From: Flaccisagitta enflata
Taxonomy: Eukaryota
Assembly: GCA_965153355.1 (NCBI GenBank)
Contig: OZ231126.1
Span: 33,852,001 to 33,916,000, forward strand
Direction: 5' to 3'
Length of the DNA stretch: 64,000 nucleotides
In this document: positions 9,501 through 32,927 of the stretch, piece after piece
Position numbering within the stretch: the first letter of the stretch is position 1
Layout: every line of letters starts with the position of its first letter
Notes under the pieces: generated by a model
What the model was told of the DNA's origin: nothing
Database searches by the model: none
What the model saw: only the letters and a program-made list of their open reading frames with translations
Position numbers and translations under genes: made by a program

Positions 9501-12500
9501 TAGCAATTTTGTTTTGCTTGTCATTTCTAAACGGTTTGAGCTAGGGAAACGCGATTGGCAGAATTCAAAAAGAAATTCAATCTAGTTTCAGAATCTCACC
9601 GATTTTCTTATGAAATCTTTATATTAGTCTAAGAGGAGATATTGTCCAAAATGCTTGTCCATATAGTTATGCTCTGGGTAGTAGACCAATCCCGGGTCTG
9701 TATCTAAAACGGTTTAGGAGCTAGAGCCTTCTAAAGAGAAGCTCTTATTTGCAAAAATGCACTTTTTTCAAACAAAAAAAAAGAAATACTACATGGAGAT
9801 TGGTTGCCACAATAAACCATTCAAAAGTGCGTCTTTTTTATTGATACGCGTGGTATAGGTATGCCAGAAGGTTGGTAAAGCGAAATCTTGGATGACGCAA
9901 TATCGGCATAAATAAGTATTTCTGAGCATTACGGCCCCTGCCCAGCCATATTACACCTACATACTGCCTCTGCCTCTGCCCACCCGCATTACTGCCCTTG
10001 CACACCCGCCAGCGACTACCCATCGGTTTAGATAGTGATTTTCCCTGAACTCCAGGAAAACCGATCGTTTCAAGTTTTTCTCAATGATTATGTAAAAGAG
10101 AAGAAAACAAGTGACGCGGGGTAACAATATTGTTGCGGACGGGTGTGCAGGGGCATCCAATACCCATCCACACCTCATGCCCTCCATACATACACAGAAA
10201 CCATCTAAAGCGCTCATTTATGCACTTTTCGACCTGTGTCCACAGACCAAAAGACGAACCAATGGACCAACGGACGGACAGACGGACGGACAAAGCCTCT
10301 TATAGACTTGCGTGTCCGCCACTAAAAAGTGGAATAGAGTATTAACTAACACAAGTGTAAAAGACTGTACATTTTTGTTTTTCCCCCACCGAGTTTTGGA
10401 TTTACTTTCTACGAGTGATGGTGCCCTCGTTCACTATCAAGGTAATAAATGGATCACTTGTCGGCCGTTTCGCAGAATTACGAGAAGTCGAGAACCGCAA
10501 GAACCTCGACCCACCCACGAATTTGACAAATGCTCGTTTCACTTCTTAAAACTCTTTTTTTTTCGCCGTCAGTCTGGCATTTTTTAGTCGCGTGCACGCG
10601 ACTCTACACCCCGCTTTGTCCGTTCGTCCGTCGGTCGGTCGGTTGGTTGGTCGGTCTGTCGGTCCGTCACACTTTTAGTTTTTTTATCAATTTTTTTTAA
10701 AAGTCATTTAAAGTCATTTAAGAGTATACTGAGTCATTCTAAGTCATTCTAAGTCATTTTAAGTCAATCTGTAAATCTCTCACGCGACTTATAGGTGTTG
10801 GCCTTGTTGATTGTTCTGTTTACTTTTTAGTCGCGTGCACGCGACTCTACACCTTGGTCTGTCGGTCAGTTGGTCAGTCGGTCCGTCCCGTAACATTTTT
10901 AAATTTTTAAATTTTTAAGTATTTCAACATTGTTTAGCTTTCTTTAACAACCTTTAACATTTTTTAACATTTTCTGAGTTTTTTATGGCATTTTAACATT
11001 TTTTAACATTTTTTAACATCATCTAACATTTTTTAACATTCTTTGATATTTCCTGACATTTTAACATTTTGTTTGTCATTTCCAGACGCACGCGACTGTT
11101 GCCCTCTTGGGCTTGTTCCTTGTTACTATACTGGTTCCTGGATTCTTTCGCTTTTGAAAGCTTGTTTGTTTTCCCTTACATTTGTTACCGTTGGCGTTTT
11201 TGGCTCAACTATACAAAGGAAGAATTGTCCGACTGTTAGTCCGACTGTTGCATGTTGGTCCTGTTTTAGTAAGAGAGCGATTCAACTGGGCTAAGTTGTG
11301 TGTAACTGATTGACATCTTTCAGATTACCATTTCTATCTACACTGCCATCAATGTGTTAACAACAACTTTTGTCTAAAGAATGTTACGTCGGTCAAGTTT
11401 CGGACGCACAAAATGCGGACAGACAAACTGGTTCTCAAAAAAAACCATAAGCGCATCCAAAAACCCTTGGTGGCCTATTTTGAATGTCATGAAACCGGCG
11501 CAAACGAGAATGTTTACCATCCCTTTTTTTTTCTCTCTCTCTCTTTGCCCGGAGCAAGACAGGGCTGAACGAAGGCACCGGGCTGAAATTTGAGCATTAT
11601 TTCCTCTTTATGAGATAGCAATTTTTTTCTGATGGCGTGTTTTATTCCCGCGCGAAAAATGCTTTCAATGCATATCATCAAAATGGCGGAAATTAGATTT
11701 AGGGCGTCAAAGGGCTTTTTGGCATGATGAGCGAAACTATTGCCATTTGGAAGTTATGCATTCGAAATTATTAGGGAAAGGGAATAGAGGAATAGATATG
11801 GAATCACTAGCCCGACACTACAAGGGTCAGTTGGAAGTGATGATGATGCATCAATGGCGATATGAAGTGGGCAAAAATTTACTTATCACATCGATTTTTT
11901 CTTCCTTTCTGCCAACCATAACCTAACATTACGCAAGAATAATTGGTCTTCACTAAGTGCTATGTTATGAATTATGTAGAGGTTTTCCATTTTCCCAGAA
12001 GTATAGAGATTCAGTTTTTGCGTGGTTGTCGGTGTTGTTGTTGTTATCTCCCCCTAAAGCAATCGCCACCAAGGGAGAAATTTTCTGTTCTCCCTTCGAC
12101 TTTTGTTTATCCCTCTTTTCGACCCTTATCGAATATTTATGGCCAGGTAGTAAATATCACGAATGGGAACGCATGCGCGCGCGACCCGTCGCGGCGACCT
12201 GCTTCACCAAAAATCGCCGAAACGTGGAGTGGGAATAAAAACCCAAAACAAAACAACAAGCCTGACTATACTTTCAGCATACGTATTGGACTTAGACTTC
12301 CATTATTTTTTCTCCCTCAGGCTTGAACCCTTGAGATCTCGTACAAAGGATGGGGATATTTTGAGAGGATGAAAGCTGTAATGCTACTCAGTAGTATTTT
12401 TTTCAGAAGAGAAATGTTGTTATGAGTGAGCGAGATTGTGAAACAATTTTTTGGGGAGGGAGGCGACTAGTTTTTGGAGAGGATGTGTATGGCATAATGG

Positions 12501-13050
12501 AAGCGTCACGCTTGTCGGCACGTTGTCAAACCATACTTTGCGCTTGTTCCAGCTTGGGCCCTCATAGGCACACTCTAAGTAGGACACCCCAGATAGGATG
12601 CAGTATCATAAAAGTCCAAAATCTCTTTCTAAAACTTACCATCGACATCCTCTTTGACCAAAATGATTGTTGTTTTATGATTTTCTCAAAAAATGTGCAA
12701 CGGGAGCCCTTATATAGACTGCTGGCTAAGGAACCGAAAAATGCGAAAATCGCAATAAACGCCAAAAATAGATGGGGGTGAAAAAAATTTTTATGGTCAT
12801 AGAAAGATTTGCATTTGTGAAAAGTTTACTTTTTATGTCTACTTTGAGAAAAAAAAAAGTTTGGGCCATATTTCCCATTTCCCTACCGAGGAGCTTTTAG
12901 TTCCCCCTTTTGAGGTGTGCACTACCAAAAAAAATGCAAATGAGATTTTTCTTGTTTTTCTTTGCTATTCATGACAAATTGGTAAAAATCCTTGGGCTGG
13001 TCTTTTGAAAGATATTAAGAGTAGAACATAAAATAGGAGAAGTAGCTGAT

Positions 13051-13968
13051 AGGGGTCCCTGTGGGATCCTCAAAGGGCCCCCAAATGACCAAAATAGCTG
13101 AAAATGGCTAAAAAATGAGGGGTTTTGGAGTTGTTTCTTCTCAAATGTTATTGGGGAGGACAATTTTATGTTAAGATACTGTCACCTGATTTGGAGCAAC
13201 AAAAAAAAAGGTCAGGGGCCCCTTAAGGGCCCATTCAAGGGGCCCCTAGATGCTGCTAAAGGCTTAAAACGGCAAAAATGACCAAAACTTACATTTTTAT
13301 CAATTTTTCGCCATCTTTGGCAATGAAGGGCCTAGTTATCTGTTTAGCTTCCCTCATCAGTGCAGCAGACCAAGATAAGAAGGCTGAAGACCCCTGATGG
13401 GCCCATCCAGAGGACCTAAAGGACTCATAATAGCCAAAAATGACCAAATCTTGACATTTTAATACCATTTTTCATGCATTGTTGGACTGCACCTATTTAC
13501 TGTTTATTGGATGGATGATTGATTGATTTACTGAATGATTGATTGTTAGATTGATTCATATGTCTGTGGGGCCCTTCTGGGTTCCTCAAAGGGCCCCCAA
13601 ATAACCTAAACAGCTGAAAATAGCCCAAAAATGGGGTTTTGAGTTGTTTCTTCTCAAACGTTGTTGGGAGGGAAATTCCATGTAAAGATACTGTCATCTG
13701 GTGTGGAACATCAAAAGAAAAGGTCAGGGGCCCCTCAGGGACCCATTCAAGGGGCCCCTAGATGCTCCAAAAGGCTTAAAACGGGAAAAAATGCTCAAAA
13801 TTTAAGCAGTTTTGACAATGAAGGACCTAGTTATCTGTTTAGCTTCCCTCATCAGTGCAGCAGAACTAGATAAGAATAAAAGTGAAGGCTGAAGACCCCT
13901 GTTGAACCCATACAAACGCCTTGTGGGACCCGTGATAGCCAAAAGTGACCAAATCTTGACATTTTTAA
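13051..13968. repeat. Diverged direct duplication of ~400 bp (13051-13462 and 13568-13968)
   Basis: Shared blocks include CCTCAAAGGGCCCCCAAAT, CCTAGTTATCTGTTTAGCTTCCCTCATCAGTGCAGCAGA and TGACCAAATCTTGACATTTT. Confidence 0.85.
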
Positions 13969-14869
13969 TGTTATTCATCGTTCATAGATTGTTTGCTTAC
14001 TGTTTGTTGGATAATTGATTATCTCCTATATCTTGTAACAAACTTTATCTGAATTTTTCTCCGTTTGGGTATAAAGAATATTTTCCCACTTGTCATACAC
14101 GATATGATTGATATGAAAATTAATTGATTTATAAGCTGCTGCAGCTCTTGCTGTAAAGATCAAGACTTGCTACTTGACATTGTACAATTTGATGAACAAT
14201 AGAAGAACACAGAAAGACTTATGTTCATTTATCTGTCTGTCCGTCTATCCCTTTGGCTTTGTGCATCCTTCCCTCTTTTCAGCCTTCAGCCTTCAGCCTC
14301 TGCTGATCAACTCTTTCAGGCACCAAATTAGCGTTTTGAGCCATGAAATCAACTGTTTTAGGCGTCAAATTAGCCTCGTCTGACCTCAATTAAATCCTCT
14401 CAGGCCTTAAATCAGTTTTACCAGGGCTCTTTCAGGCCTCAAATCAGCCTTCTTTTTCATGAAATCAACTGTCTCGGACCTCAAATTTTGTCTTTTCAGC
14501 CCCAATCAGCCCTCCCAAGCTTTTTGAAGCCTTTAATCACCCCCTGTGTACTAACCCCTTTGGAGCTGTGCCCTGCTCCCAAATACAATCATAAAAAGAA
14601 GGGCAGTGGGTATTGCTGAACACATATCACTACTGCTTTGTTTTAGTAATAGCATTTTGTTTGTGTAGCAGGCTGGTTCAGATATCAATGACTTAAAGCC
14701 AGCCTGGGGGGCAGGGGCATTAGCCGGAATGAGCCTGCCCTTTGCCCCTGACCATTTACATTACCTTTTCATAACAGTTGGAACTAAGGTTGACTATCTC
14801 TTTCATTTCTCTATCCCTTCTCGTTCCTGATAGTTTATCAACTCATTTTCCTATAGATATATTGAGGAG

Positions 14870-15730
14870 GAAAAGGATTGCCCCTGCCCTTTGCCTCTCT
14901 GTTTCCCACCCGCCTCTGCCGATGCTGCTGCCATCTCAACCCATACGACCATCACTCTTCTCCTTCCCGCTGCCGATGCCGATGCCGACTCTCATGCCCA
15001 TAACCTACATAGCTGTATAACCATATTCCTATCTTCTGCTGCCGCTGCCTTTGCCGCCTGAACCCTTATCTTCTGCTGCTGTTGCTGCCGCAGCCGCTGC
15101 CGCTGCCGCTGAAGATGTCACCCATATGGCCAATTGCCAATCATCTTAACTGCCACTACCAATGCCACTGCCAACTCTCCCTGTTAGCTCATGACATTCA
15201 TACCTGCCGCTGCCGCTGCCGCTGCCGCTGCCGCTGCATCTCATATGATTTTCACCTTCCTACCTGCCAATGCCGCTGCCGCTGCCGATTCAACCTGTGG
15301 AACCATCACTCCTCTACTTGTCAATGCCGATGCCGATGCCGACTCTACCTGTGTGCCCATAATCTTCATTGCTGTATAGTCATCTATTTATCTGCCGCTG
15401 CTGATGCCGCTGCCGATGCCGCTGCCGACTCAACTCATATAACCATCAACTCTCTTCCTGCTGCTGTCGTTGCCATTGCTTACTCTACCTTCATATCTGC
15501 TGCTGCTGCCGCTGTCACTGCCGCTGCCGCAGCCGCTGCCGCAGCCGCAGCATATTCTATGATCATGACCTTTCTTCCTGCCGCTACCGATGCCACTGCC
15601 GACTCTACCCATACAACCATAGTCCTTAAGCTTGCCGTTGCCGCTGCCGGCGCCGGCTCTACCTATAAGCCCATCACCTTCAAGTCCTTCACACCAGCCG
15701 CTGCCGATGCCGCTGCCGCTGCCGACTCAT
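14870..15730. repeat. Compound minisatellite of GCCGCT/GCCGAT hexamer runs with ~35-bp spacers
   Basis: Repeated (GCCGCT)n GCCGACTC...CCCATA...ACCATCA units. The Ala-rich and CR-repeat ORFs here are by-products. Confidence 0.8.
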
Positions 15731-16348
15731 GATAAAAAATAACCTTAAGCTTGCATCAACCATGCTTTGATTTACGCAATTTTTTTGGCTTTTTTGTAAT
15801 TCAATTATACAAGTGGATTCAAAAAGGCCAACTGTCGTTACAATCTTTGCCAAACGCAGATCCATAAAAACAGAAGATTTTGTCCAAATCTGTGGCAAAT
15901 GAAACTGCCATACACACTACCATTTTTTCATTCTACACTGTACTTGTTATAAGGGTTATAAGGGCTAGATCGAGCAACAAGGTTTTTCAGATTATATTTT
16001 ATGGAAAACTAGGAGTGGTGCGCGTATTAACTGGTCAGTGGGGGTTCACAAGGCCCTCTTCCATTTTTTCAGTTTGGGTATAGTGAGGGATATTGTTCCA
16101 CCTATCATACATAGAGGATAGTCAAGTGCGATTGACCCCAGTTCAGATTAAATTTTAATTTTGCAGTTGTTGTTTAATTAGTGTTCCTTACTTGTATACC
16201 AAATAAAAAAAATCACACTCTGTAAATACCATCTACCTGTGTTAAACACATAATTTCCATTAGAATGTTATTACAAAAATAATGGGCAAAGGGGAGAAAA
16301 AGTTTATGAACTTTTTTGGAAATTGGTACACGAGCTCCCATCAACCTA

Positions 16349-16514
16349 CAGTTGAATCCCGCTCAAGGAACTAACGAGTTTTTGCTGTTACAGGTGAAAT
16401 TCTGTTAGAGCCAATATAGGGAAAAAAAGGAAAAAAGTTGATGGAACTATGAATTTGCATCCATTGCAAGCAAAATTCCGTTAGTGGCGGGTCTGTTAGA
16501 GCGGGGTTTAACTG
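16349..16514. mobile_element. Tc1/mariner (pogo/Tigger-like) MITE with TA TSD
   Basis: TA|CAGTTGAATCCCGCT ... AGCGGGGTTTAACTG|TA. Confidence 0.75.
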
Positions 16515-16796
16515 TATACCGTGAATAAACAGGTCAAGTTTCTTGAGCTCCTTTAGTTTGGTTTAGAAAATATCTTACGTTTTAAAAAGACAAACAAACA
16601 AACAAACCAACAAACCAACAAACGGATGGATTCGTTCAAGTCCTTCTCATAGTCTCACTGATGATCTGAGTGCGGTTGGAGTGTACACTTTTCTCCTTCT
16701 TCTTTTTCATCTCCTTCTTCTCCTCCGCACCCCCCCTTCATCTCCTTTCTCCTTCTTCTCGTTCCTCATCTCCATTCTTTCATAACTTATAACTAA

Positions 16797-17153
16797 CACT
16801 TTTTATTTTTTATAAGAACGTCATGTTTTTGTAGAAGCCTTAGAAGAAATATAGGAATAATACTAATAAAATAACACCACAACACACTCAACTGATTCGC
16901 AGTGAAATCCTGGGCTAATCCATCCTTAAATGGATATCCCTTGATTTAGAGCTTACATATAAGAATTAGCCATAGCGACAAGCGACTTAAAAGTTATAAT
17001 CGATAGATTTCAACTGAAGGATTTTCATCCGAAAGAAATACTACTTCGCGATTTACAATTAAACAAAGTAAGTGTGACAATGTTCTTAATTTTTGAAGCG
17101 ATTTCAAGCCTTGATGTTCTTATAAACTACGTTCTTATAAAAAATAAAAAGTG
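16797..17153. mobile_element. MITE with 25-bp perfect TIRs
   Basis: CACTTTTTATTTTTTATAAGAACGT ... ACGTTCTTATAAAAAATAAAAAGTG|TA. Confidence 0.85.
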
Positions 17154-17894
17154 TATATAAATCATGGAGACAGCAGCGCCGGTCTCAAAGAAATGAGGAA
17201 CAATGTCTTTTGTTTTCACTCAAAAGATAACAACGTAAACATTCGCCTGAATCGTCTCCTTAAGTCAAATGCGCTTTTATCATCTTTAGTTACATTCACA
17301 AGACTCTGATTGGCTGACAGTCGATAATGATGTCAGGAACACAGTGGGCTTTTTTAGGCGAACCTTTCTCAAAACCTCTGGTAGCTTCTAACCTAATTTT
17401 TCTTGCACATTACAATCTTATCACCCATATCACCTGGCAATTATTATTACAACATTATCACAGTAATGTCAGCATGGAAATGGCGATATATCAGCAAAAA
17501 CAAACCGCAACAATAATTATGCGAGATTTAACATTAGGCTGCTGTTTCATCGTTTCGCGATTCTATTCTTAATGCTATTCTAAAGAATGACGATCTAGCA
17601 AAAAATATATTAACAACGACTGTTAATTATCAAAAATAATTGTTGGACGAAGGTTCACATTGCAACGAAAACAAAATAAAATATAGCACGGCTGGAACGG
17701 TGACATCTAGGCTACTGTTAACGGTAATTCAAAACGCAATATAACTCTTTTATTGCTGCAACTACACTTTCTAGAAAATAAATGCTACGTGAAGGTGAAC
17801 ATGGCGGTCATGGCGCTGATGGAGATGATGGCGGTGAGCGGGGTTGATGGCGCTTATGGCGTTGTCGGCCAAGGAGCTGTCTCTTCCACTTCCT

Positions 17895-18608
17895 CTAGTG
17901 GACCCACGTTGGCGGCCAAGGATCTGTCTCTTCCACTTCTTCGAGCGGAACCACTTTGTGTCCAGAATGATCATACCTGTAGACACGATGAGAGGAAATA
18001 TTTTTTCAGAAAACGATGTAATAAATCAAGTTAAATTAACTCAAATCAATCATATCAGGAAACGAAAAACATCTAAAAGGTGGATTCCCTCGCAAAGGAA
18101 GGAGAAAGTACTTACATCCAGCACCAGTTGCAACCTTCTTTGTTACAGTCCTCGCAATAGATTGAGAGCTCCCTCTGCGGATGGACAGCGCACGCTGGTA
18201 TCACGCTTTCGTATAAACCAATGAGGACGTTGAGAAATGCAGCGCGAACGTAACTGTCGAGAGACACCTCCCTCCTGGGTAGGATAATTTAAGTAGTGAA
18301 CACTCAAGCGGGTATGTGAGGATTAAAACAAGATAATCATAAAGTCCCAATAGATTTATGCAGTTACAAAACAGAAACAGTACCTTACGACTTCATTGCA
18401 AAACAATAGCGAATACTAAAGAATAATACCTGCAATGTGGACAGGAATCCAGGTCGTACATCATGTACGCGTCGGATATGCATTCGTAACAATAATGAGT
18501 GATGCATGCGAAGCAGATGTAAGGGTTGGTCGGCATCGCCCAGCATATTAGACATTTGAAGTCGTGATAGAAATTGTTAATCTCTTCCCGGGTCCATAAC
18601 ACCGGCAT
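17895..18608 (-). CDS. TRIM37-like RING(C4C4)+B-box mini-protein, paralog A (exons 18608-18430, 18274-18116, 17976-17895; 139 aa)
   Basis: FKCLICWAMPTNPYICFACITHYCYECISDAYMMYDLDSCPHCR | ...CAVHPQRELSIYCEDCNKEGCNWCW | YDHSGHKVVPLEEV. GT-AG phase-2 introns give an intact frame. Minus-strand AATAAA lies near 17750. Confidence 0.85.
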
Positions 18609-18916
18609 GGTGTCCTTAGTGTAACTTGCACGATGACCGCCACTTTCAACGAAAAGACAAGTGTTTCAGTAACACTGCTAAAAATAAGAAACAAATAAAA
18701 CTGGTCGCAGATATACTACAACTGTGGCAATATATACTATGGCGCGATAGTTGTTAACACTGCAACTATCAGTAACAATAACGGCCCAATGTCATACTCA
18801 AAATTTTAACGGGGCTATACTTTCGGTATCCCGTTAATGTTAGAAAATGTTTTTTCCAATTCATCCGTTCCGTAGCCCGTGACCGGCGATGATGGCGAGG
18901 CTGGCGGCGTCGACAC

Positions 18917-19628
18917 TTAAGGCGGCTGAACGGGTGCATGTGGAACAATGTGATGTCCAACATGACGCTCCCTGTAAAGCCGATGAGAGGAAACATCAAT
19001 TACCAAACCATGTCAACTGAAAATAGCACAAATTAGACTGACAAGGCAACAGAAACATATGTTAAACTCGGAATGTATTCATACCTATCCCGTACAACAA
19101 AAACAAACAGGACTTACTGCCAGCAAGCGTTGCAACCCTCCAGCTCGCAGATTGTGCAATACATCGACAGCGGTTTGACGTTATGGATCGCGCAGGCGGG
19201 CTTCACTGTCTTGAAAACCTCAATGAGGGTGGTCATGAATGGAGCGAGTATAAACGATTCCATGGTAACCTCCGACCTGCGCATGATAATGCCATATGTA
19301 AAAAGTATTGCGGCAATCTGCTAGTTTCACCTAGGGGCGTAAAATATCATCAAAGTATTGCAAACGATTCAGCAATATCTTCTTACTAATTCATTTCCTA
19401 TAACAACAATCATACCTATAACATATAATACCTGCAATATGGACAGCGCTTGTGCTCGTACATGACCATCAACGTCGTGACACAGTCGTAGCAATAAATT
19501 TGGACGCATACCTCGCATAAGTGCGGGTCTGTTGGCAGCAAGAAGCAGATGCCGCATCGAAACTCCTTTTCCGCCTCTTCCATGCGCTTTTTAGTCATCA
19601 ACAATGGCATGTCTGTTTTGATATTCAT
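18917..19628 (-). CDS. TRIM37-like RING(C4C4)+B-box mini-protein, paralog B (exons 19628-19432, 19276-19118, 18971-18917; 136 aa)
   Basis: FRCGICFLLPTDPHLCEVCVQIYCYDCVTTLMVMYEHKRCPYCR | ...CAIHNVKPLSMYCTICELEGCNACW | ERHVGHHIVP. Intron positions and phases match paralog A, and exon 2 is also 159 bp. Confidence 0.85.
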
Positions 19629-20121
19629 TTACGTTATCGTGCCTGCGAAACACAAACCATGTTACAGTGAAAATGAATTGGCGCTGGCGCTGGTTGTCAT
19701 TACATTTCTCACAATACAGCACAAGGGTCCGCTTAGTAATTTATTCATTAATAACTAAACTGCTCATTATAAAAAACGAAAAGACCCAAAAACGGAAACG
19801 AAAGACGAAAAACGGAACGGAAACGAAAACTGGAAGGGGCCAAAACCAAATTTGGATGAGAACATGAAATGGTTGCTCAACACCATGGACACAAATATAA
19901 TATTTATCTTAGGCCAGGCCTTTGACTTTTTAAAAAGGCGGCAAACAAGCCGGTCGAGGCAAATATAATTGTTATCTACTAACTAGGAAAAAAATATTAT
20001 CACAGGATACTAACTGTTAGCATTGCACAAAAGGCTTTCACTAATGTCGAAAATATCGCAACACAATCAATTCAGTCCATGGGTTCCCCACAGCATTGGC
20101 TTGCGAAGCAAAACGCCGACG

Positions 20122-20553
20122 TTAACGTCCACTGTTGCTAGAAGCCCCGATGGACAAAAGGCGCATGGAATCCAAATTGTCAAACTTCTCTATGATGAGC
20201 TGCGCGACGCAGTCTCCCTGACAGAGCGTGAAGGCTTTGTCGCTGCTGTTGGCAATGATGATTTTGATCTCGCCACGATAGTCGGAAGTGATTAGGCCCC
20301 CCAGAACGTCGACGCCAAAGTCAAGTGGGAAACCGGATCTCGGCGCCACGCGGCCATACGTTCCACTCAGCAACATGACCACGACGCCCGTACCGATAAA
20401 CGCTTTTTCGCCAGGTGGGATAACGACTTCTTGTCCGGATGCAGACCACAAAACGGCGTGCAGGTCAAACCCCGCGCCGCCTTCGGACTTGTTGTCCGGC
20501 GCCACGGACGCTGGGTGCAGTAGCAAGTAACGAAAAAAGTCATTGGCAGCCAT
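20122..20553 (-). pseudogene. dut: Intronless trimeric dUTPase homolog, degenerate (pseudogene or pseudoenzyme)
   Basis: Motifs AGFDL, GRVAPRSG, GGLITSDYRGEI and GDCVAQLI are present. The motif III Asp is replaced by Thr. Motif V is broken by TAA (R*RRRFAS). Confidence 0.85.
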
Positions 20554-20806
20554 GATTTCAGTGGAGTCCACAAAGCGGAATGAGACAACTGGCGGGAAAC
20601 TAAGATATCGTTGAAGCATCATGCAGCAAATGAATTGTGACAGCAATGGAGCACGCAACACAATAATGACGACGGTTAGGGGGGGGGGGGGGCAGAATCC
20701 AACATTTTTTTAAAACAACTGAAACAATAGTCATCACTGGATCGTCTGGCCCGGTCTCGGCATTACGTTTTTTCTGCTAGAGATTTGCTTTTAACCCAAA
20801 TACGTG

Positions 20807-21785
20807 CTATCTATCTGCTTCGGGGTCGTTGTCGTCGTTGTCATCATCCTCCTCGTCCTCATTTTCTGCGCCTTGGTTGGCCATCTCCACGGGAACGATT
20901 AAGTGGCCGCTGTGATCATCACTGTGAAGTAAATGGAACACTAACTGCATTAACAAAATATATAAGGCCGGATACATGGCAATCGCGTAGGGCTGGGCAG
21001 GAGCAGTGTTGCAAATACAGCTCGACATGAAAAAATGTGACGATGGGACGGACAAAACGATCAACATGGGTAGGTATCAAGTCGCGTGGCCGCGACTAAT
21101 TACTGATATTCAGGAAAGTTTTATCTATTGTTGCCCCAAAATGCTAAGTGATTTAGTTTTGACTCACTTTCTGCAAAGCTTGCACAATGGCTTCGAGCAG
21201 ACTTTACAAAACGAGATAATGATGTTCATGATGCTCTGTGGATGGAGTGGGCAGACGGTGACTGCCTTCGATGCCCTTAACTCCTTTACAAATGGGGTGA
21301 CCCAGTCGCATTCATCAAATCTTTCGAGATCAAGGGCCAACCTGCATTACAAAATCTTAACACTTGATTTGGTTCGTCCTACCATCTACTCATGAAATAT
21401 ATTTGTTTTACCCAAAACACAGCACATGAAATATATTGATTGTACTACAAACACTGCACATGAAGTATAATTCTTATAACAAAAACACTCGGTGTCTGGA
21501 GTGAACAACTTTAGAACATTACCTTCAATGCGGGCAACAATTTGCATTTTCCTGGTAAGCTGCTCGAAGACATTGTAGACAGAAGTATTTGTCGCAACCG
21601 GGACAAATGAAAGCGTTGACGGGATCGGATTCGCACAGCGGGCAGCGAAAATGAGAGATGAGACGGTCGCGTTCACCGACCTCAATGATCAACCACTCCG
21701 GGAAAGGCCTGTCCATTGCGTCACAAATGAGCCAGGGATCTTGCGTCTTGTTAACCAGGACTAATCCCTTTTCGTTGAATAACAT
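20807..21785 (-). pseudogene. TRIM37-like RING+B-box paralog C with in-frame TGA at the last RING Cys (exons 21785-21523, 21341-21168, 20921-20807)
   Basis: FRCPLCESDPVNAFICPGCDKYFCLQCLRAAYQENANCCPH*R | LALDLERFDECDWVTPFVKEL...CPLHPQ...FCKVCSKPLCKLCR | DDHSGHLIVPVE plus an acidic tail. Intron positions match A and B. Confidence 0.8.
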
Positions 21786-22430: not shown

Positions 22431-22922
22431 TCAGAAACCAGAGCTGCAAGAGTCTGAGGATTCACAGGTGATGTCGTCATCGGCGTCATCCGCGTCGTCG
22501 CCGCTGTCGGCACAAGATGGCGATTCTGTAGACTCGACTTTAATTAATCACAGAAATTACTTTTTTTTTTCCCTCGATATAATTAAGAGAGAATTAGTAA
22601 ATAAGTCAAAGAAATAAAATTATTTTATTTCAGCCTATTTCTCACCTATCAGATCAACTATTTCCTTTAAAGTCTCTTTATCGACCGCCTGTATCTTTGT
22701 GTCGTCAGCATTGGCCAACAGTCTTTTTCTTTTGCGACTCATCTTTCGTAAATGATGGTCGCCAGTCCTTATGCCGGCATGGACTGACGCGGACTCCGAC
22801 GCCGATGACGAGCGAACACCATCGTCAACTAAATACCAGCCTTCCCCTTCGCGCACGATTTGGCATGGTCGGAACGACATGCCTTTTAGGGAAACGAGTT
22901 TTCTACTTTTTCTACGGCCCAT
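22431..22922 (-). CDS. Hypothetical 2-exon protein (~123 aa), basic N-terminus and acidic C-terminus (exons 22922-22646, 22525-22431)
   Basis: MGRRKSRKLVSLKG...RKMSRKRKRLL... followed by a G|GTGAG donor and CTACAG acceptor. The frame continues as ESPSCADSGDDADDADDD...GF*. Confidence 0.5.
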
Positions 22923-23335
22923 ACTAATTCTAAATCTAATGGGGAAAATGTCCTGAAATGGAAATGCAAATGGAAATGAAAAATAGGGGAGGAAAGAATA
23001 ACTAATGTTTAGCAATGGTTTTCCAAATTTTTTTCAAACATTTCCATTTTTGGGATCCCACAAAAAAGGGCTAAGCTATATGGTTTTGGGTCAAATAGGC
23101 TGACCACTTAAATTTTGGGCCTAAAATGATTCTAGCTGAAAAGTAACACGGTGAATTATCACAAAAATGAAAGGCTACAATAAAAAGTGGTAAACTGGAA
23201 TTTGCAAAAACATCAGTTAAACTCATTGATTGAAAAACAGCATTATCATGGGAGCACATATGAGGTTTTTGTTAGATAATAACGGCAATTTTCGACTATT
23301 ATTTACTTGCCATCATTCAGCCGTAATAGCAATTT

Positions 23336-23410
23336 CTGAACGGGCTGAACGGGCTGAACGGGCTGAACAGGCTGAACAGGCTGAACGGGCTGAATCGCAC
23401 CGGCTGAATG
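23336..23410. repeat. 9-bp tandem repeat (GGGCTGAAC)n
   Basis: About 7 copies are visible. The same motif appears twice near 11562-11590. Confidence 0.8.
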
Positions 23411-23846
23411 ACGGCAAGTCAATAATTTTAAAAATTCTCCGTTCATATCTTATAAATGAATAATATGTGCTTCCATGATAATGCTGTTTTCCCATCATTT
23501 TACCTACCATATGTGCCATGACTGTCAACCAACAGAAGTTAAACTCATGAGGTATACAGTTTTGGCCCAAAAAAAGGCCGCATATCTACCTTTGGACCCG
23601 ATATTGTGCAAAAGAAAATCAAACTAAAAGCTGTTTAGCAAAAATCTCGAGCAGAAAAAACGTAATGCCGAGACAGGGCCAGACGATCCAGTGATGACTA
23701 TTGTTTCAGTTGTTTTTAACTATTTTTTTATTCTGCCCCCCCCCCCCTCACCGTCGCAACACAATAATGATGACGGTTGATAAATCGTTACTAAAATATT
23801 TGTTGTCTGCCCCCCCACCTTTTTAAAAGGGAAATGATAAGGCAGT

Positions 23847-26800
23847 TTAGGAATTGGCAGAGAACAGGTCAGCGAGAACGTCTTGCGTGGCGTTTCCACC
23901 GTCACGACCGTCCTGGCCGGCGTCGGCAACGGCGTTGGTGTCGGCAACGTCGCCCTCGGCGGTTTCCTCCACGCCGGCGTTGGCCACGTCATCGTCGACG
24001 ACGTCCTCCCATCGATCGCTCAGTCTTGCTTCCATCTCAAGGCAGCCTTCGACGAAGTCATCGAAGTCAGCGTACGGCATTTGAAGAACCGAGCGAGCTT
24101 CAATGGCCCTGCGGAAGATGCGGCGCCGTCCTTCGACCATGCCTCGTTCGTACTCGGCGATAAACTCTCCAATCAATTTGTCGCCTCTCTTCTGTTTCCC
24201 CAAGGCTTGATGTCTTTGACGTCGCCGAATGTCCATGACCCAGTCGCTCACTCCGAAACCGTAACTGGAGGATAGTGGATGGTTGGTAAAACACACAAGA
24301 CCCTAGCATAAATGATGTGACACAAGAAAATAGTATAAAGGATGCGACCGAAGAAACAAGCATAAACCATGCAACTTACCATTCCAAGAAATCCCAGAAT
24401 GCGTCTAGCTGAGGACTGTAAGCGCACTGGTCCATCCACTCGTGGTCTATTTTAAGGTCTCGAAAAAAGGACATGTAATAGACGTGGAAGAGGGTGCGCA
24501 AGTATCGGTCCCAGCTACCACAATCGTTGCCTTCCGCGCGAGTTAGGAGCCACGTTAGCCCGTATTCGGTGCAGGCTCCGACGTCGAAGTCTCCCGACTC
24601 GTCATGGTGAAGAAAAAACATGGCGCAATGGGGGCCTCTGCTAGCAACCTCCATGATGTCATCGATATCCTGCGGGATGAAGGATGGATGAGAAATTGTA
24701 AATGTGGTTAAAGATCCTAGATCCAAATATAATTGTTACATTAGGCACGCCCTTTCTTTTCATAAACGGTGGGTAACACGACGTTCCAGCCGATTACAAT
24801 TAATAAAATGTGTCACTGTTTTTAGCGCTGTAAGACACCCAATGCAACACAATGTGGTACAATACCGGTATTTTTGGACATCCGAATTCGTTCAAAAGCC
24901 ATTGGATGACGTCGAAGCCAGCTTCGGCCTTGTCCATGACCCCTTTTTGAACGCGGACCTCGTCTCCCTCCTTGGAGATTATCATTGTTGCCAGTGGATG
25001 CAACAGCTGTATGAGGGTGGCCGCGTTTTGGATGCATAACTCGTAGGAGTTCCTCTTGTTCACGCCAGGCTCACGGTCACGAATGTGGTACGCGGTCAGA
25101 ATCTCGTTGGCCAGCAGCGGTTGCAGGTGGCGCAGATAGAGGAAGGGGAAGAGCTGGCGCGGATCCTAATGTATAAAAGACAAGTTGTCAAAAATTATAT
25201 TTTTAGAGGTACTAGAGACAGGATTAAATGGAACCCCCCCCCCCAACACACATTTCCTAACTAAACTTACAATCTTAGGGCTCCGGCTCAAAACCACGAC
25301 GATATGGCCGTATCGGCATAAGAATGCACCCAATTTGGAGTTGAAGAACTTGTCGATGTCTTTTTCTCTTGTCGACACCACCATCACGTTATCGTCGGGG
25401 ACGTGCCTGTTGTAGAGGCTCATGAGCCCTAATCGATCTTGCTCAAACTGAAGATTCCATCGGGCCACTCGTTCGGGAAACGTCGTCTTCAGAGTAGTTT
25501 CAACCAACTAAATGGAAGAATGAAGTCAAACAAGTCAAGTATTAAAAAATATAGGCATGACAAGTGGTGTCTTTATAGAGGCATGTGTGGCAGGCGTGTG
25601 TGCCATTGATGGCACGTGAACGCATGTGTTCCTTTAATGGAGCCATGCCCATGAAGGCATGGCCAGGAAGCCATGTGTGCCATTCATATGAGGCAAGTTA
25701 CATTGTATCTGGTGGCCACTTACATTGTATACGCTGCTGAGCGTTTGCCAGTCGGGGATAGGCTGGACGTAGATCCGTCGGAAAAACTCGTTGATCCCCA
25801 AACTTCGCAGTTCAATGTTGTTGACAATCCTGTCCCAGAATTGTCTGACTTCCGCGGTCTTTACTTTTTTGATCCCGGCCTCTTTGGCGAGTGTCGACAC
25901 CATCGAAAGAAACATGCTGGGGGTGCAAGGCTGCACCGGAGGAGGAGGAGGAGGAGGAGGAGCAGCTCCGAAAGTCGAGATCGCTGGCCTGTTTTGAAAG
26001 TGTATATAAATAAAATTTTAACGAATGTGCTGGGAGGTGGAAATTGAAAAAAAATAAAAACAACCGTTTCCAGCACAAGATAAACAACCATTTACTTACA
26101 ATTTTTTTGGGCAGCGTTGGCCTTTCTTTCTCAACGCACTGTTTTCTGCAACGACACCCCTGTTAATGGTCAAGTTTGGAAATTTGTTATACCACGGGAA
26201 TTTCCAAACTGTCCTCTCCAACCACCTCCTTGTCGCTTAACTCACCCACGAGTGGAATCTTGGCTGAATTCCGGGGGGACGGCGGCATCATCGTCGCTAA
26301 CAGAGATGATTTGGGTCGGCAATTTTTCGACGGTGTCTTCCGCTTCGTAATCGGCATCAACATCCACGCCAGCCAAGTTGGGGATGGAGGGAGTGGTTTC
26401 TACCACCTCCGCTCTTGCGTTCTTGAAACTGTGAACATATATGGATGAAAATCTAACAGTTATATTGGGGGCCAAAGTATAATTATTGTCAATGACACTG
26501 AAAATTGCAATGTTAACGCTTCTCTTTTCGCATTACCTGTTCACAACTGAGCGAGTGATTCTCCGACGCTTGATTTGATATCGGTCCATAACCGCCAATT
26601 GCTCGGGAGTCAATGACTGCTCGTTATGATCCATTGCGTCGCCGAAACTCGTGGCAAATGGACGTTTGGAAAATTGGGGGAGAGACTTCTCACCGCCAAC
26701 GAAATCGGACCGCAATCGTTTTTGCCCAATGTGTCTGCCCGAGGACTTGGAAGACGACGAATTTGCAGCGGACGATTTTGAAGACGACGAATTTGCAGCG

Positions 26801-29800
26801 GACGATTTAGAAGACGACGAATTTGCAGCGGACGATTGGCCAGCGGATGATTTGGCAGAGCATGTAGTAGATGCAGTTGAGGGAAGCGCGGCTCCAATAT
26901 TTGGGGATTGTGTGTGCTTCTTGGTTCTGTAGAAAAATAATGGGATTATTATATAATGATCATCTCAGCCATGAAATATAATTGTTTTTTCTCATTCCCT
27001 TCGACTAAACTCAATTTCTTGTGTGTTCACAAGTTGCAATGTTACCTAGTCGGAGCAGCAGCGGAAGTGGACGTTGGTGAGGTCGCATTGGAGGGGACGA
27101 CATCCTCTTGAATCAAGTCGTTAAAATCGTCACCCCCGCTGTCATCTTCTTCAGAGTGATCATCGCTGCAGTCCTTCGTCCTTGTAACCAAAATATAATC
27201 ATGATATGAACCACATGATATTATTATCGCAGCAATCATGACACATAATTGTGTGTTGGCTGGCGAAAGCTTAATCTCACCTCCTCGATGTTGCAGCTGG
27301 AGCGGCAGCGGCAGCGGCAGCGGCAGTGGCGCGTCTGGAAGAGATTGTCAGATTGGCCGCTTGATTGGGCGGTTGAGACGATGGAATCACGCTGACATAA
27401 ACAATGGAAAAAAAAAATCACCATCAGCAATAAACTGTTTTCGAAATGGATAGTCTGATGGAATAATTCAAAAAATGCTTATCCACTTCAATAATACTCA
27501 CTCGTCAGCATCCGAAGCATCGTCCAAACCCTCGCTGGAAGCATCGTCGCCTTCATCCACAAACTGCTTCGATGTCGGAGTCTTGGCCGGTGGGGGGGGC
27601 ATGTTCGGCGTAGAACGTGCTTCCACCCGGGGAAAGTACCTTTCCACCTTCTTGGCCAGCTTTGCGTCTTCCAGCATTTGGGAGCGCAACTGGGCGCAAT
27701 TCAGTTTATTGCTAAGAAATAATAGCAAAAATTATAAATTAATAAATACATAAATAAATACATGAGATTTTAATTCATCAATAAATAGATCAGGTTTCAA
27801 ATCATCATTCAATAAATCATTATTCATCAATCATCACAAAATACATGAAATTTCAAATCTATGAATACATCATTCTCGACATGCATATGCAGGCAAATAT
27901 TTCATTATTTTAAGCAACCCCTTACCCTGGTTTCTCCAACGCTTTTTTGAGCAGTGCTGCGTGATGATTGATGTTTAAAGCCGTCTGACGCCCGAGCCAG
28001 TTCACCCCCTTGCCGGCTGACTTTGCCAAATTTTCGATTTCACGGCGCATATTGCTCAACGTTTCCCTTTGCTTTGGGGTCGCTCTTCTGCCATACAGAG
28101 AGTCTTTGTAGGTCTTCATCTGCCTCTTGAGGTCCCGCTGAAGTTCGCTGATGTTTTTGCCCTCCTTGGTGAATCTGTGAAAGTAAGAAAGAGTGGTGGT
28201 GTAATAAAAAGTAGTTAGCCAATGTCAGTGGAATCTGTAATTGTAGGAGCAACTGTACACCTACAGCGTAACCGTTTGCTACTTACGTGTCACGAAGTAA
28301 GAGGGAAATCGGAATCTCCTTGTGGTTGTCGGGCCACTCAAACAGTTTGCAACCCGCCATCTCCTCGGCAAAAAGGTCCACGAGGCGGAAAAACTCCCCC
28401 AAACAGACGTATGTTGGAGCTGAGTGGTGGGTCGGGCCGAAATTATCCTTCTGTATGAAAAGAAAATTTGCAGACTACTTATATAAACAGTTATAACAGT
28501 TTTGCAGTTGTACCACTTTAAACAGTTATATTAACAGTTACAACAGTTCTATTCGAAATAAGCATTTTCTCATGATAAAAATTTCGAAGCAATGATATAA
28601 AAACTACCTTAAACAACCCAATCACTGCACCTGGCTTTGTCGAAGGATCCTGTCCAAAATCCCGCGTAACAGCAATGTCTCGTTCTTCGACAACTTCGCC
28701 ACTCCACCCTACATTGTCAACAAAGAAACAGTGGCTATACAAAGCAAGAAATATAATTATTAGAAGATATGTCATTGTCATTGCTAACATCGCGCAACTC
28801 ACCACTTCCTTGATCCTCCCAAGAATATCAATGAGGTGGGGATCCGTTCTTATATATTGAAGGAGACCACCATTCATGACCCACATGTGGTACTGGCTCT
28901 TCGAGAACATTTTGCCTTAAAAAAACGTAAAAAAAAAGATCCATATAAATCCAACTGCTATTTCGATCATTACAATAACACCCTGCGTATAACAGTGCAC
29001 TTGGCTTAAGTTCCTTAACGATACCTTCAAAGTCGCTTCCGAGCTGTTGCGGGACGAATCGGCAGCGGTTGGAGTCGGAGTCGACGACGACATAGCCCAG
29101 GCAGAACACGTGCGAGACGCCGCGGGTGAGATCGTGATAACCGATCGGGCCTTTCCGCACGGGGCAGTGCAGCATCATATAAGGCCGGACGATTTTTATG
29201 TCTTTGCCGTCGTTGTCCTTTTGAACCGTAGGCGCTTGCATATAGAGCCGAAAAGGGTTTTTGGGGTCGGGTCCAGGCGTTTTGGTATCCGGCAACAGGG
29301 CTGGGTCTGTGGGCGAAATACAAACATTCATTATGTTTAGATAAGGTCAAATGGGCATATGGTGGAAAATACAAAAATTTATATACAACCTTAAAGGATA
29401 TAACAATTATATACAACCTTCAACAACATCCACGACTAAAAACTCACCACAAGTCGCCAGGAAACTATGTTCGCCGTTTTCGAGATCTACCATAAGGTAA
29501 TCCAGTTCTTCCGCGGTCAGGCCAGCGACGGTGGGCAATTTCGAGGGAGGAGCAAGAGAACGTTTTGGAGCTTTCTTTGCAGAAGGTTCTCCTGAAGCAG
29601 CGGTCGCCATGTCGACTTCTATCTCTCCTTCCATGTCTTCTTCGTCGTCTTCTTCATGGACTTCTTCATCGACATCTTCTTTTGACTCCCCCTCATCGTC
29701 ACTCCCTCTGTCACTCACTTCCTCATCCTTTTCCTGCTCATCATAATCCTTGCGATGAGAAGCAGGGCCACGACCTTTGCCACCTTCATTGGCGGAAGAG

Positions 29801-30036: not shown

Positions 30037-30037
30037 T

Positions 30038-32792
30038 TCACTCTTTCACCATTACGTTTACATTAAAGTCGTGCAAGCTGAGTACTGTGGAGGTGTTTAC
30101 CTGGTATGCATTAACAGGGGACATTTTTTTTCATCAAGAAAGAACTGTTCGATTGAATCATTTATTGTTTGTAAAGCGAACAGACCATGCGTTTCAATTG
30201 GAACAGGACGGAGTGGTTGCGCTAAGACTACAATTTCCGGGTGATGGTGGACAAGGGCTAACACGCGCATAAATTTCCCGTCAGGTGCGCCATTTTCCGC
30301 GAAAGCAATGACATCTTTGATTGTGACTTTCCCTACTGTAGTTGCGACGGATTTTAACCTTGACTGCGGATTATATTGCATATAAAACGTTATCGCTTGT
30401 GGGTGAAGTCCATTTTCGTTTTTCAAGATAGAAACTTTTCTTGTCTCCAATTGCGCTTGACTTCTTGATATTAATTTGGAATCGATGCGTCTCATGATGG
30501 TTTTTAATACATTTATTGTACATCTGCTACTACCGAACGCCCTCTTACACAACTGGTGTGTTTGCTCACAAAGCCCAGAATTCTGTAATGACAAAGGGAC
30601 GGCCCATCTGAGTGCAGCAGGGTAATGTACTAGGTTATGCTCTTTGGATTTGAGTCTGGGATCATATTCTCCAGTTGCTGTCCTTGTGAGATTCATGCGC
30701 GCATTCAATGTGTCTTGGATGTAAGCTTCCAACTGAGTTAGGCTAGCCACGTTGTGGTTTCGGGTTAGTAATAGTCTAGTTAAATGGAGAACTTTCAAAT
30801 AAAATTGCCAAACGGGGTGGACCGGATTTTCCACTTTCGAGTATAGCACAGTGCTAAACATTAATATAAAGATGTCTTGTGTGCGCAACTTTGTTGCAAA
30901 TCTTTATCTCTTTTTTCCATAATCAAATTTGAAGTAGGCTCGATTCCTGCAATCCTCCCTCCTGCAATCCTCCCTACGGAATTTAAAACGTTTCCACCGA
31001 TTTCTCAATGACATTGGCGATATCCATTGCAAGTCAAAGACAATACGGTTTACGATGATTGTCATCCAAGTTACAGTGCAGCCGAGAAAGAAATCATGAT
31101 CCAGATCTAAACAGTAAATGTTTGTGTTTGGGTGGATATATGGAATGTTGTGCAAAACGGGTACACTAGTGAATCCGTGCGGCAAAATATCGTCGTTGGC
31201 TTCGGCACGAATGACCTCCATGTATTCTTGAGGGGTGCGAATAGCGGCTGTTGACAGACTAGCAGCGGTATTTGCAGTAGCTAAATCAGCCATTAAATAA
31301 TGGCAAAAGCGACAACATTTTCCATGTGACCATGACCGCGTTAACCCACAAAGCTGATTCTGGGACAAAGTGTCCCCTATGATATACATGACTCTCACTT
31401 GGAGACGACGGCCCTTCCAAATCATACCATTTAGCACAACCTCTGTAAACTGCTTGTAAATTTCTTCCATTATCCTTTTTAATCCAATTTCTCCTACATC
31501 TTGAGAATAAATGAGTGCCAAAGGAAATACTTGTTCCAGTTTCCGTTGGTTCGTACCTTCCAAAATAATTATTACATAAAAGTTCCAAAGCTTATAATAA
31601 CTATTCTTGGCGTACAATGAGGCCAAAGGTTGAACTTCATCGTAAGCAATAGCAAGAAGTAAAACAGGCTGATCTTCTTGGATACTCAATTCCTGGTATA
31701 ATTGAGAGTTCTTTATAGAATGATGCGTTCCAGCACTTGGCGATTTCAGGTGAAACTGTTGGACTCGCTGCCAATTGTCTTTGGAGCTCAAAAACAATTT
31801 GATCATTTCCTGTACGTCATAGAAGTGAACTTGGATTCTTTTAGGGAGAAATGGGTCATTTCAATGGAAAACTTTTTACAGTTTCTGAATTTCAGAGCTT
31901 TTTGCCTTAAGTTGTTTGCGAGCATAACTGGATTTAAGCTGCCTAACTTTTTTCCTTAGCCGTTCTGTAATGGGGATTTGTAGATGTAACAGTAAGTTCC
32001 ATATAGTTTTCATAACAAAGTTGATTACGATTTCCGTCGCCGCGAACGTATTCTCCAGAGTATCAACTGCTTCCTCAAGTAGCTTTATTATAAAATCCAG
32101 ATTGCCACCAGCACCACCACCACCACCAACACCAACCAACACCACCACCACCACCACCTCCTCCTCCTCCTCCTCCTCCACCACCACCACCACCACCACC
32201 ATCCCCACTGCCATCACCTCCACCATCACCATCACCGCTACCACCGCCGCCACGACCACCATTGCCACTGCTGCCTACACAGAAATGCTCATCAAAAAAA
32301 TGCTCTTCCAGTTCACTGTCATCACCAACATCATCTTCCTCCTCCTCGTCCTCCTCAACCTCATTGTCACTACTTTCAGAGTCGCTGGACAAGGCATCGT
32401 TCTCCATGTCATCATCATTGTGCGGCTGGTCACATTCACAAAGTATATGGCCTATAAGTCTGTGTTTTTCAAAATGTTCAGGTCCGTTATAAACACACCT
32501 TGTTTTGGATATTATCTGGTATGGACATACTTTGGAATGGTCTGGTGCGAGTTCATAATGACTTTGGAGGAAACGAAAGTTGTCAGAGAGTTTTTGGGAG
32601 AAAGGAAGCGTTGTACCACAAACAAGGCACTCCTTTGTCTGTTCGAAGTGCCTGCTAATGTGTCTCCGAGCAGAGGCAGTGTCTGACACCCTTGTATATC
32701 GCTTGCACAAGAGGCATTTTGGCCTTGTGGTTTTCTTAGCGTTTACTTTGTCCAACAGGTCTTGAAACGCAATTTCTTTTAATGATGACATT
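30038..32792 (-). pseudogene. CMC/EnSpm (CACTA-type) DDE transposase, disrupted
   Basis: N-terminal C2H2 fingers (CLLC...H...H). Core motifs are LAIAYDEV, YIIGDTLSQNQLCGLTRSWS...CCRFC, LDLDHDFFLG (DxxH), KEHNLVHYP and LCEQTHQLCK. There is a frameshift in the Gly microsatellite, stops at 31876, 31861 and 30904, and a probable homopolymer frameshift near 30125. Confidence 0.85.
32105..32270. repeat. (CCA)n/(CCT)n trinucleotide tract inside the transposase (poly-Gly)
   Basis: Directly visible. The reading frame shifts within it. Confidence 0.9.
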
Positions 32793-32927
32793 TTAAAACT
32801 GAACAGGGCAAGGGCGCTATGGTGGGCAGATATAATGATTATAATTGCCACGTAGTCGGCAGAGTAATTATATGTCGCTTGTTTACGGCGTTCACTACTG
32901 TCACTACAAGTAATATTCCCAATACAG

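Follow-up and report, generated by a model that had tools for sequence, protein, structure and literature searches.

Organisation of the gene array

The stretch of DNA considered in the current analysis, referred to below as the window, comprises 64,000 nt of the genome of Flaccisagitta enflata (contig OZ231126.1, positions 33,852,001 to 33,916,000 of the forward strand). Positions 17895-21785 of the window encode, on the minus strand, four tightly packed genes, three of which, here named A, B and C, code for small proteins with a RING followed by a B-box, an arrangement that an earlier note on this DNA had likened to the N-terminal part of TRIM37. Read 5' to 3', the order of the genes is C (21785-20807), a dUTPase gene (20553-20122), B (19628-18917) and A (18608-17895), with intergenic gaps of 253 nt (C-dUTPase), 493 nt (dUTPase-B) and 308 nt (B-A). 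The exons of the three RING and B-box genes, together with the first intron of gene A, are as follows.

Gene C, exon 1: 21523..21785, minus strand; conserved N-terminal extension and RING, with an in-frame TGA at the position of the eighth ligand
Gene C, exon 2: 21168..21341, minus strand; linker and B-box ligands 1-6, with 5 codons more than its counterparts in A and B; zf-B_box E 3.6e-4
Gene C, exon 3: 20807..20921, minus strand; H-S-G-H-x2-V-P, long acidic tail, TAG stop
Gene B, exon 1: 19432..19628, minus strand; RING, with an in-frame stop immediately upstream of the ATG; best PDB match TRIM37 (3lrq, E 0.002)
Gene B, exon 2: 19118..19276, minus strand; linker and B-box ligands 1-6; zf-B_box E 0.0017
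Gene B, exon 3: 18917..18971, minus strand; H-V-G-H-x2-V-P, TAA stop
Gene A, exon 1: 18430..18608, minus strand; start codon, N-terminal helix region and complete 8-Cys RING, ending AG/GT inside the Arg codon of CPHCR
Gene A, intron 1: 18275..18429, minus strand; 155 nt, GT..AG, phase 2; skipped by one RNA-derived contig of run X3
Gene A, exon 2: 18116..18274, minus strand; linker helix and B-box ligands 1-6; zf-B_box E 2.9e-4, 21.4 bits, profile positions 5-29 of 42; matched in tblastn by residues 84-145 of P0137 (E 1.5e-5)
Gene A, exon 3: 17895..17976, minus strand; B-box end H-S-G-H-x2-V-P, short acidic tail, TAG stop

Each of the three genes is comprised of three exons, and all six introns are of the GT..AG type. 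Both introns are in phase 2 in A, B and C, exon 1 leaving two extra bases and the lengths of exon 2 being multiples of 3. The first intron falls within the Arg codon of the C-P-x-C-R that ends the RING, and the second lies one to two codons past the sixth B-box ligand. These models bear out the description of three 3-exon genes with common phase-2 introns after the RING CPxCR and inside the B-box, and the four junctions named in the earlier note (18430/18274, 18116/17976, 19432/19276 and 19118/18971) are exact. The spliced products are of 139 (A), 136 (B) and 183 (C) residues. They carry the RING pattern C-x2-C-x9-C-x2-C-x4-C-x2-C-x11/12-C-x2-C, preceded by F-R or F-K and having a stop in place of the last Cys in C. 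In the joined exons the B-box reads C-x2-H ... C-x2-C-x4-C-x2-C ... H-x-G-H-x2-V-P, so that the HxGH..VP ending described earlier is present in all three. A six-frame regular-expression scan of the window returned the RING-core and B-box patterns three times each, in these genes only, and they are therefore not considered to be chance occurrences.

As had been recognised before, the copies are strongly diverged, with a protein identity of 42% between A and B (55/130), 30% between A and C (42/138) and 24% between B and C (31/130), the zinc ligands and splice sites being intact in A and B. Besides all eight zinc ligands, A and B retain the Pro of C-P-x-C and the Arg following the last Cys, and the hydrophobic residue after the first RING Cys is likewise retained. 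The claim of a complete ring in each copy holds for A and B and fails for C, in which a previously overlooked in-frame TGA (21527-21525) occupies the place of the eighth ligand. A near-identical public cluster of copy C, with 18 members, is uninterrupted at this site in 15/15 of the members listed, which are 88 or 96 residues long. The reading of TGA as a sense codon was considered and rejected: the other stops that split frames nearby are TAA (in a transposase-like open reading frame) and TAG (25166-25168, between two contiguous frames), and reading through TGA lengthens open frames no more than reading through TAA, so that TGA is not taken to be reassigned. Copy C of the window is thus either a null allele, a copy in decay or an error of assembly; judged against the public sequences it appears to be a null allele in this assembly, the intact versions being dominant in the public data.

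The stops of A, B and C lie 16-37 codons past the B-box H-x-G-H, and the next gene starts 253 nt after C and 308 nt after B. [quoted passage not shown] A single 17-residue match (E 0.74) was dismissed as noise. Downstream of gene A, there is no minus-strand open frame of at least 100 residues between 11000 and 17838. These results uphold the observation that the genes are without coiled-coil and MATH domains.

Four RNA runs were considered. Three of them are contig sets from marine metatranscriptomes, in which 23-27 of 30 bins are covered, introns and intergenic DNA included, at a depth of 2-6. One contig of run X3 skips exactly 18275-18429 (joint 18273/18429, cut +1, CT..AC on the plus strand), which is the predicted intron 1 of gene A. 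Spliced contigs for the five other junctions are found in none of the four runs. In about 6% of the polyA run X6, a single read matched at 90-95% likeness, which is evidence neither way. Among the junctions for which RNA support had been anticipated, 18430/18274 is thus seen in one X3 contig, and 18116/17976, 19432/19276 and 19118/18971 are without a spliced contig. At least one contig derived from RNA thus shows the predicted splicing of copy A, which is thin support for the removal of its intron 1.

The RING and B-box module and its relation to TRIM37

As the introns cut the domains, domain searches were made exon by exon. The RING exons match the RING families of Pfam with E-values of 0.0045-0.04 (0.0045-0.9 for exon 1 of gene A), short of the cut-off. 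The B-box exons match zf-B_box with E-values of 2.9e-4 (A), 1.7e-3 (B) and 3.6e-4 (C), from profile position 3, 4 or 5 to position 29 of 42. Exon 2 alone falls short of the zf-B_box cut-off because the intron cuts the domain at profile position 29, and two unsplit relatives, P0029 (27.6 bits) and P0034 (38.2 bits), exceed that cut-off (24.1 bits). A profile of the three B-box exons finds as its best matches in PDB the B-box2 of TRIM63 (E 0.0019), TRIM28, TRIM54 and TRIM2/3. The RING of copy B alone has TRIM37 (3lrq, E 0.002) as its best PDB match, with identical ligand spacing and an F-R-C start, and the three-copy RING profile matches RBBP6 (1.9e-7) and TRIM37 (3lrq, 4e-7) ahead of RING2/BMI1 (1e-5).

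The RING-exon profile was also compared with 1.84 billion representative proteins and gave 121 matches at E<=1e-3. The same Cys spacing (C-x2-C-x9-C-x2-C-x4-C-x2-C-x8-16-C-x2-C) is present in 76 of them, and Pfam assigns a B-box to 25, MATH_2 to 5 and MATH to 3, many of the matches being short fragments. Ten were looked up, and the two that have a name, from a beetle and a mosquito (P0047 and P0055), are both called 'E3 ubiquitin-protein ligase TRIM37-like'. P0068 combines a RING, a B-box and a MATH_2 domain, each above the Pfam cut-off. The ranks in PDB, the shared spacing and these TRIM37-like and RING, B-box and MATH_2 proteins support the suggestion that a TRIM37-type C4C4 RING is followed here by a B-box, as far as the N-terminal module is concerned.

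The nearest relatives of the three genes are unnamed proteins from marine assemblies. The short ones are read-throughs of exon 1 that end at or just past C-P-H-C-R, of the A type (P0017, P0138), the B type (P0016), the C type (P0018, P0019, P0022, P0024, P0025) and others (P0021, P0023, P0028). In P0029 and P0040 the RING passes into the B-box with no intron 1 between them, and both proteins stop at the place expected for intron 2. P0049 is an unsplit RING and B-box protein of 183 residues, and in P0034 and P0137 (558 aa) the B-box is followed by an extended helical region and a C-terminus rich in beta structure. This C-terminal domain of P0137 has neither a Pfam MATH match nor similarity to the MATH regions of TRIM37, and a single-sequence AlphaFold model of the protein, with a mean predicted local distance difference test score (pLDDT) of 36.7, was unusable. 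A word-index search with exon 1 of A for longer proteins was discarded, as it found only an unspliced read-through frame of the same locus.

The eight RING Cys are kept in all examined relatives but P0027. An A-type relative differs from A at 16 of 60 residues, none of which is a Cys, and the public A-type, B-type and at least five C-type lineages keep the eight Cys, their sequences ending at the same exon boundary. In a tree of 21 RING and B-box sequences, unrooted and with no outgroup, A and B pair with a support of 99/98 and group with P0034/P0137 and C at 81/85, on long branches and apart from the named TRIM37-like set. The closest relatives (P0029, P0034, P0137 and P0040) are nearer to the genes of the window than the named TRIM37-like proteins are.

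The intron positions were compared by aligning 18 TRIM37-type fragments from the match list, which are open reading frame calls and not DNA, to the full-length P0136 and noting the points of divergence. Two of the 18 (P0065 and P0073) cease to match directly behind C-P-H-C-R, where Tyr or a stop follows, as is expected when a phase-2 GT intron in the Arg codon is read through in the manner of the genes described here; two more (P0103 and P0096) diverge one codon later. Since two fragments break at the same Arg codon, intron 1 seems to be common to some TRIM37 genes. Close to the position of intron 2, two fragments have a break (behind residues 133 and 137 of P0136); a two-residue difference in length does not allow the positions to be equated.

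The earlier note had also proposed purifying selection. The non-synonymous (dN) and synonymous (dS) distances between A and B are 0.56 and 1.35, giving a dN/dS of about 0.4 with dS near saturation; the ratios for A-C and B-C are uninformative because of saturation. Of 118 differences in the variant list, 40 are listed, and 24 of these were classified, 16 between B and the dUTPase gene being set aside. Among the differences listed, gene B has 6 synonymous and 7 non-synonymous ones, one of the latter turning the stop into a sense codon. The near-saturated ratio and these counts are weak tests of the proposal; the zinc ligands are kept in the diverged public relatives examined. Constraint is better argued from the ligands, splice sites and exon ends that are kept across paralogues and diverged lineages, which would lend it weak support.

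Considering these observations together, A, B and C are probably three old tandem paralogues of a small (136-183 aa) RING and B-box2 family that derives from the TRIM37 branch of the TRIM ubiquitin ligases. The duplication is believed to have occurred at the level of DNA, because the introns were kept. With the genes ending right after the B-box, the coiled coil and the MATH/TRAF domain would have been lost. Each protein would then be a minimal ubiquitin ligase (E3) module, whose RING is predicted to bind the ubiquitin-charged conjugating enzyme (E2~ubiquitin). Lacking coiled coil and substrate-binding domain, it may act as a stand-alone or auto-ubiquitinating ligase that makes its contacts via the B-box and the tail; alternatively it could be a modulator that pairs with full-length relatives. 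The TRIM37-like assignment is supported, from the sequence comparisons, at the level of the N-terminal module; having neither coiled coil nor MATH domain, the genes fail as full members of TRIM37.

Several results weigh against this interpretation. RBBP6 ties with TRIM37 in the PDB profile search, and with the RING of copy A alone RBBP6 comes first (E 0.0031) and TRIM37 only fourth (E 0.18). The expectation that profile searches would return a TRIM37-type RING and a B-box2 is therefore borne out by the zf-B_box matches, the TRIM B-box2 structures and the first or second rank of TRIM37 in PDB, and is countered by RBBP6 being on a par and by the result for copy A. The residue that aligns in PDB to one Trp of TRIM37, which we take to be a residue in contact with the E2, is Ala or Leu in the genes of the window. 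A common position of intron 1 is deduced from the divergence of read-through frames and not from DNA, and 14 of the 18 fragments stop matching elsewhere or run on. The junction in the X3 contig depends on one contig with a depth of 3.08, 30 letters on its shorter side and 90% likeness. Unspliced contigs run across intron 2 of A (17929-18323 and 17792-18120), both introns of B (18903-19604) and intergenic DNA, so that the metatranscriptome libraries may hold DNA or pre-mRNA. Copy C is interrupted in this window, and the selection tests are weak, both in the variant counts of B and in the near-saturated dS of A-B.

The RING of RBBP6, like that of the window genes, is all-Cys. Its structures (PDB 2yur and 3ztg) give the best PDB scores for the three-copy profile and for copy A. 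As RBBP6 has no B-box after its RING and, in the alignment with copy A, lacks the x9/x2/x4 spacing, the resemblance is one of the RING only. TRIM37 (TRIM subfamily A or class VIII, with RING, B-box2, coiled coil and MATH) shares with the genes of the window the RING ligand spacing, the F-R/K start and the C-P-x-C-R end, and likewise has a B-box2 after a helical linker that ends in H-x-G-H ... P. It ranks first or second in the PDB searches with copy B and with the three-copy profile, the best RING matches overall include TRIM37-like proteins, and some TRIM37 fragments break at the Arg codon in which intron 1 of the window genes lies. In contrast to TRIM37, which has about 800-1000 residues, the proteins described here have 136-183 residues and neither coiled coil nor MATH; the identity over the RING is only about 30-45%, and unlike the named TRIM37-like group they are placed with the unnamed marine P0034/P0137 (81/85 in the unrooted tree).

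Genes related to TRIM37 occur across eukaryotes, and Marin (2012, PMC3503706) regards TRIM37 as the most ancient of the TRIM lineages. The same work describes an amplification of TRIM37-like genes in mosquitoes, with none to two MATH domains, and a Dictyostelium gene without MATH (PMC3503706). Amplification in a lineage and loss of C-terminal domains are thus shared with the genes reported here, which unlike the mosquito and Dictyostelium genes also lack the coiled coil, are compact, with three exons each, and stand in tandem about a dUTPase gene. Primate TRIM52, according to Malfavon-Borja et al. (2013, PMC3845644), consists of RING and B-box2 only. It arose when TRIM41 was partially duplicated, was without coiled coil and C-terminal domain from the outset, and has undergone recurrent pseudogenisation in some lineages. 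It differs from the genes of the window in its TRIM41 parent as against a TRIM37 type, in a C3HC4 RING whose loop is greatly expanded, and in being a single gene and not an array (PMC3845644). The genes of the window fit the pattern of TRIM52 and of the MATH-less TRIM37-like genes, to which they make a modest addition, namely genes of the TRIM37 branch in which both coiled coil and MATH are absent.

A conserved family of RING and B-box only, present in several diverged marine lineages, would represent a natural minimal TRIM module, and no named member has been found among the family relatives looked up. Such a module would be useful for asking what the RING and B-box of a TRIM do without a coiled-coil scaffold, and whether the small proteins regulate full-length relatives.

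The dUTPase gene and the question of a mobile element

The further features of the window that bear on the origin of the array are as follows.

20122..20553, minus strand: intronless dUTPase gene between C and B; Pfam PF00692, E 1e-22, 80.7 bits against a cut-off of 22
30097..31860, minus strand: Transposase_21-like open frame, broken by one TAA; protein atlas score 0.95-0.97, in clusters with PF02992 on 29-45% of their members
32075-32950, minus strand: C2H2-finger open reading frame preceding the Transposase_21-like frame
32928-33640, plus strand: inverted partial copy of the Transposase_21-like frame, 93% over 259 nt
Near 2418, 7950, 10570, 10813, 40131, 40906, 44413, 44947, 48452, 50014 and 59949: the 11 copies of a dispersed repeat, about 240 nt long, that contains a GC-rich hairpin as well as a (GTCC)n tract

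The nearest relatives of the dUTPase are unnamed marine proteins with 52-98% identity, the nearest named ones being bacterial (38-49%). Motifs 1-4 align and motif V is degenerate in this lineage. The dUTPase of the window has three private changes at conserved residues, each of which is CpG-to-TpG on the coding strand; one of them replaces the conserved Arg of G-D-R-x-A-Q by Cys. All public relatives that cover these sites differ from the window, 5/5 at codons 111 and 115 and 4/4 at codon 62. With the dUTPase as query, the metagenomes of the Joint Genome Institute (JGI) gave 9 loci of 31-42% identity, too distant to show synteny.

The array C-dUTPase-B-A may alternatively be the cargo of a mobile or virus-like element, of which the window would hold an integrated and decaying copy. 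This explanation, which is compatible with a TRIM37 ancestry, we regard as unlikely. The E3 modules and the dUTPase would in this case serve the element by way of host ubiquitination and nucleotide pools. The four genes are co-oriented, with gaps of only 253, 493 and 308 nt, in a window that otherwise has few genes, and the dUTPase is intronless, with bacterial sequences as its nearest named relatives behind the unnamed marine ones. The block from 10.9 to 40.1 kb is free of the dispersed repeat, all 11 copies of which lie outside it, and two full inverted copies (10106-10328 and 40142-40368) stand at its edges. Microsatellites are rare in 11-37 kb, and the observed/expected ratio of CpG is 1.04 in the gene cluster as against 0.84-0.86 in the flanks. 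The Transposase_21-like frame, a pseudogene, lies about 8 kb upstream of the array, and the window copy carries the nonsense codon in C and the three private CpG-to-TpG changes of the dUTPase. The compact co-oriented array, the dUTPase, the repeat-free block and the transposase-like frame are hints of an inserted element.

Against the cargo explanation, a Pfam search of 40 further open reading frames across the window gave weak BTB-like, weak C2H2 and chance matches and no capsid, polymerase, integrase or other hallmark. The collection of viral contigs (IMG/VR) returned nothing for the RING profile or for the neighbouring frame 28828-29346, and for the dUTPase a single match at 29%. The flanking repeats belong to a dispersed family, and neither a target-site duplication nor element termini could be defined. 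In addition, the RING and B-box genes contain spliceosomal introns, of which one seems to have its counterpart in some TRIM37 genes. For an integrated virus or a large DNA transposon, hallmark genes, an intact transposase, or termini with a target-site duplication would be sought; of these the window offers only the broken Transposase_21-like frame. Rfam gave 0 matches over the whole window. In the paper library searched, nothing was found on RING and B-box genes of this kind together with dUTPase in marine endogenous viral elements, the one paper returned, on malacoherpesviruses, not being about such genes. The capture of the module by a mobile element, as proposed in the earlier note, is not supported: no element boundaries, viral hallmark genes or relatives in the viral contig collection were found, and the role proposed for it as a decoy or anti-silencing factor of the element is unsupported.

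In a more specific form, for which we see rather little likelihood, the array would be carried by a mobile or virus-like element with introns, so far undescribed, of a marine eukaryote. This element would have acquired the N-terminal part of a TRIM37-type ligase from its host, introns included, and amplified it; the window would contain an endogenised, decaying copy, as judged from the nonsense codon in C and the CpG-to-TpG changes in the dUTPase, and intact copies would circulate in the population. If an array with a bacterial-like dUTPase were truly the cargo of a mobile element or a virus, it would be of greater importance.

Two further observations were made in this region. An inverted repeat of 117 nt (90% identity, with a poly-G/C run) is located at 20670-20786, just downstream of the stop of C, and at 23642-23756, 2.9 kb upstream; it brackets gene C and the open reading frame 22635-23033, and no target-site duplication is seen at it. 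The minus-strand open frames across 22600-30050 (for example 28828-29346, 25166-25507, 24800-25165 and 23847-24302) match no Pfam family, and 28828-29346 has relatives only among proteins of the same lineage in marine assemblies.

Present state of the three copies

It has also to be considered whether A, B and C are non-functional relics, a dead tandem array that still looks gene-like, which we consider improbable. The in-frame stop in C, the predominance of unspliced contigs and the frequency of non-synonymous differences in B (7 against 6 synonymous, among those listed) agree with such decay, as does the TAA stop of gene B (18917-18919), for which contigs from each of the three metatranscriptome runs have a sense codon, so that the tail would extend. 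This is opposed by the six intact pairs of splice sites and the complete zinc ligands of A and B at an identity of only 24-42% between copies, by the exon structure and ligands kept in diverged public lineages (16/60 changes and no Cys lost in the A-type relative), by the C alleles intact in 15/15 of the public members listed, and by the one spliced contig. A, B and C as merely the first exons of ordinary full-length TRIM genes with coiled-coil and C-terminal exons further downstream, an idea to which the long helical and beta-rich extensions of the nearest unsplit relatives P0034 and P0137 lend some appeal, are hardly credible and already largely refuted, for exon 3 of each gene closes with a stop, the next gene starts within 308 nt (B) and 253 nt (C), tblastn detects no coiled-coil or MATH similarity in the 64 kb, and no minus-strand frame of at least 100 residues follows A at 11000-17838.

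Two local features of the array are also recorded. A 47-nt tandem duplication at 17860-17958 (2.1 copies, 86% identity) spans the C-terminal tail and stop of gene A and the start of its 3' flank. Upstream of gene B, in its promoter region, there is an indel in which 112 nt (19674-19785) are replaced by 17 other letters in contigs of two RNA runs.

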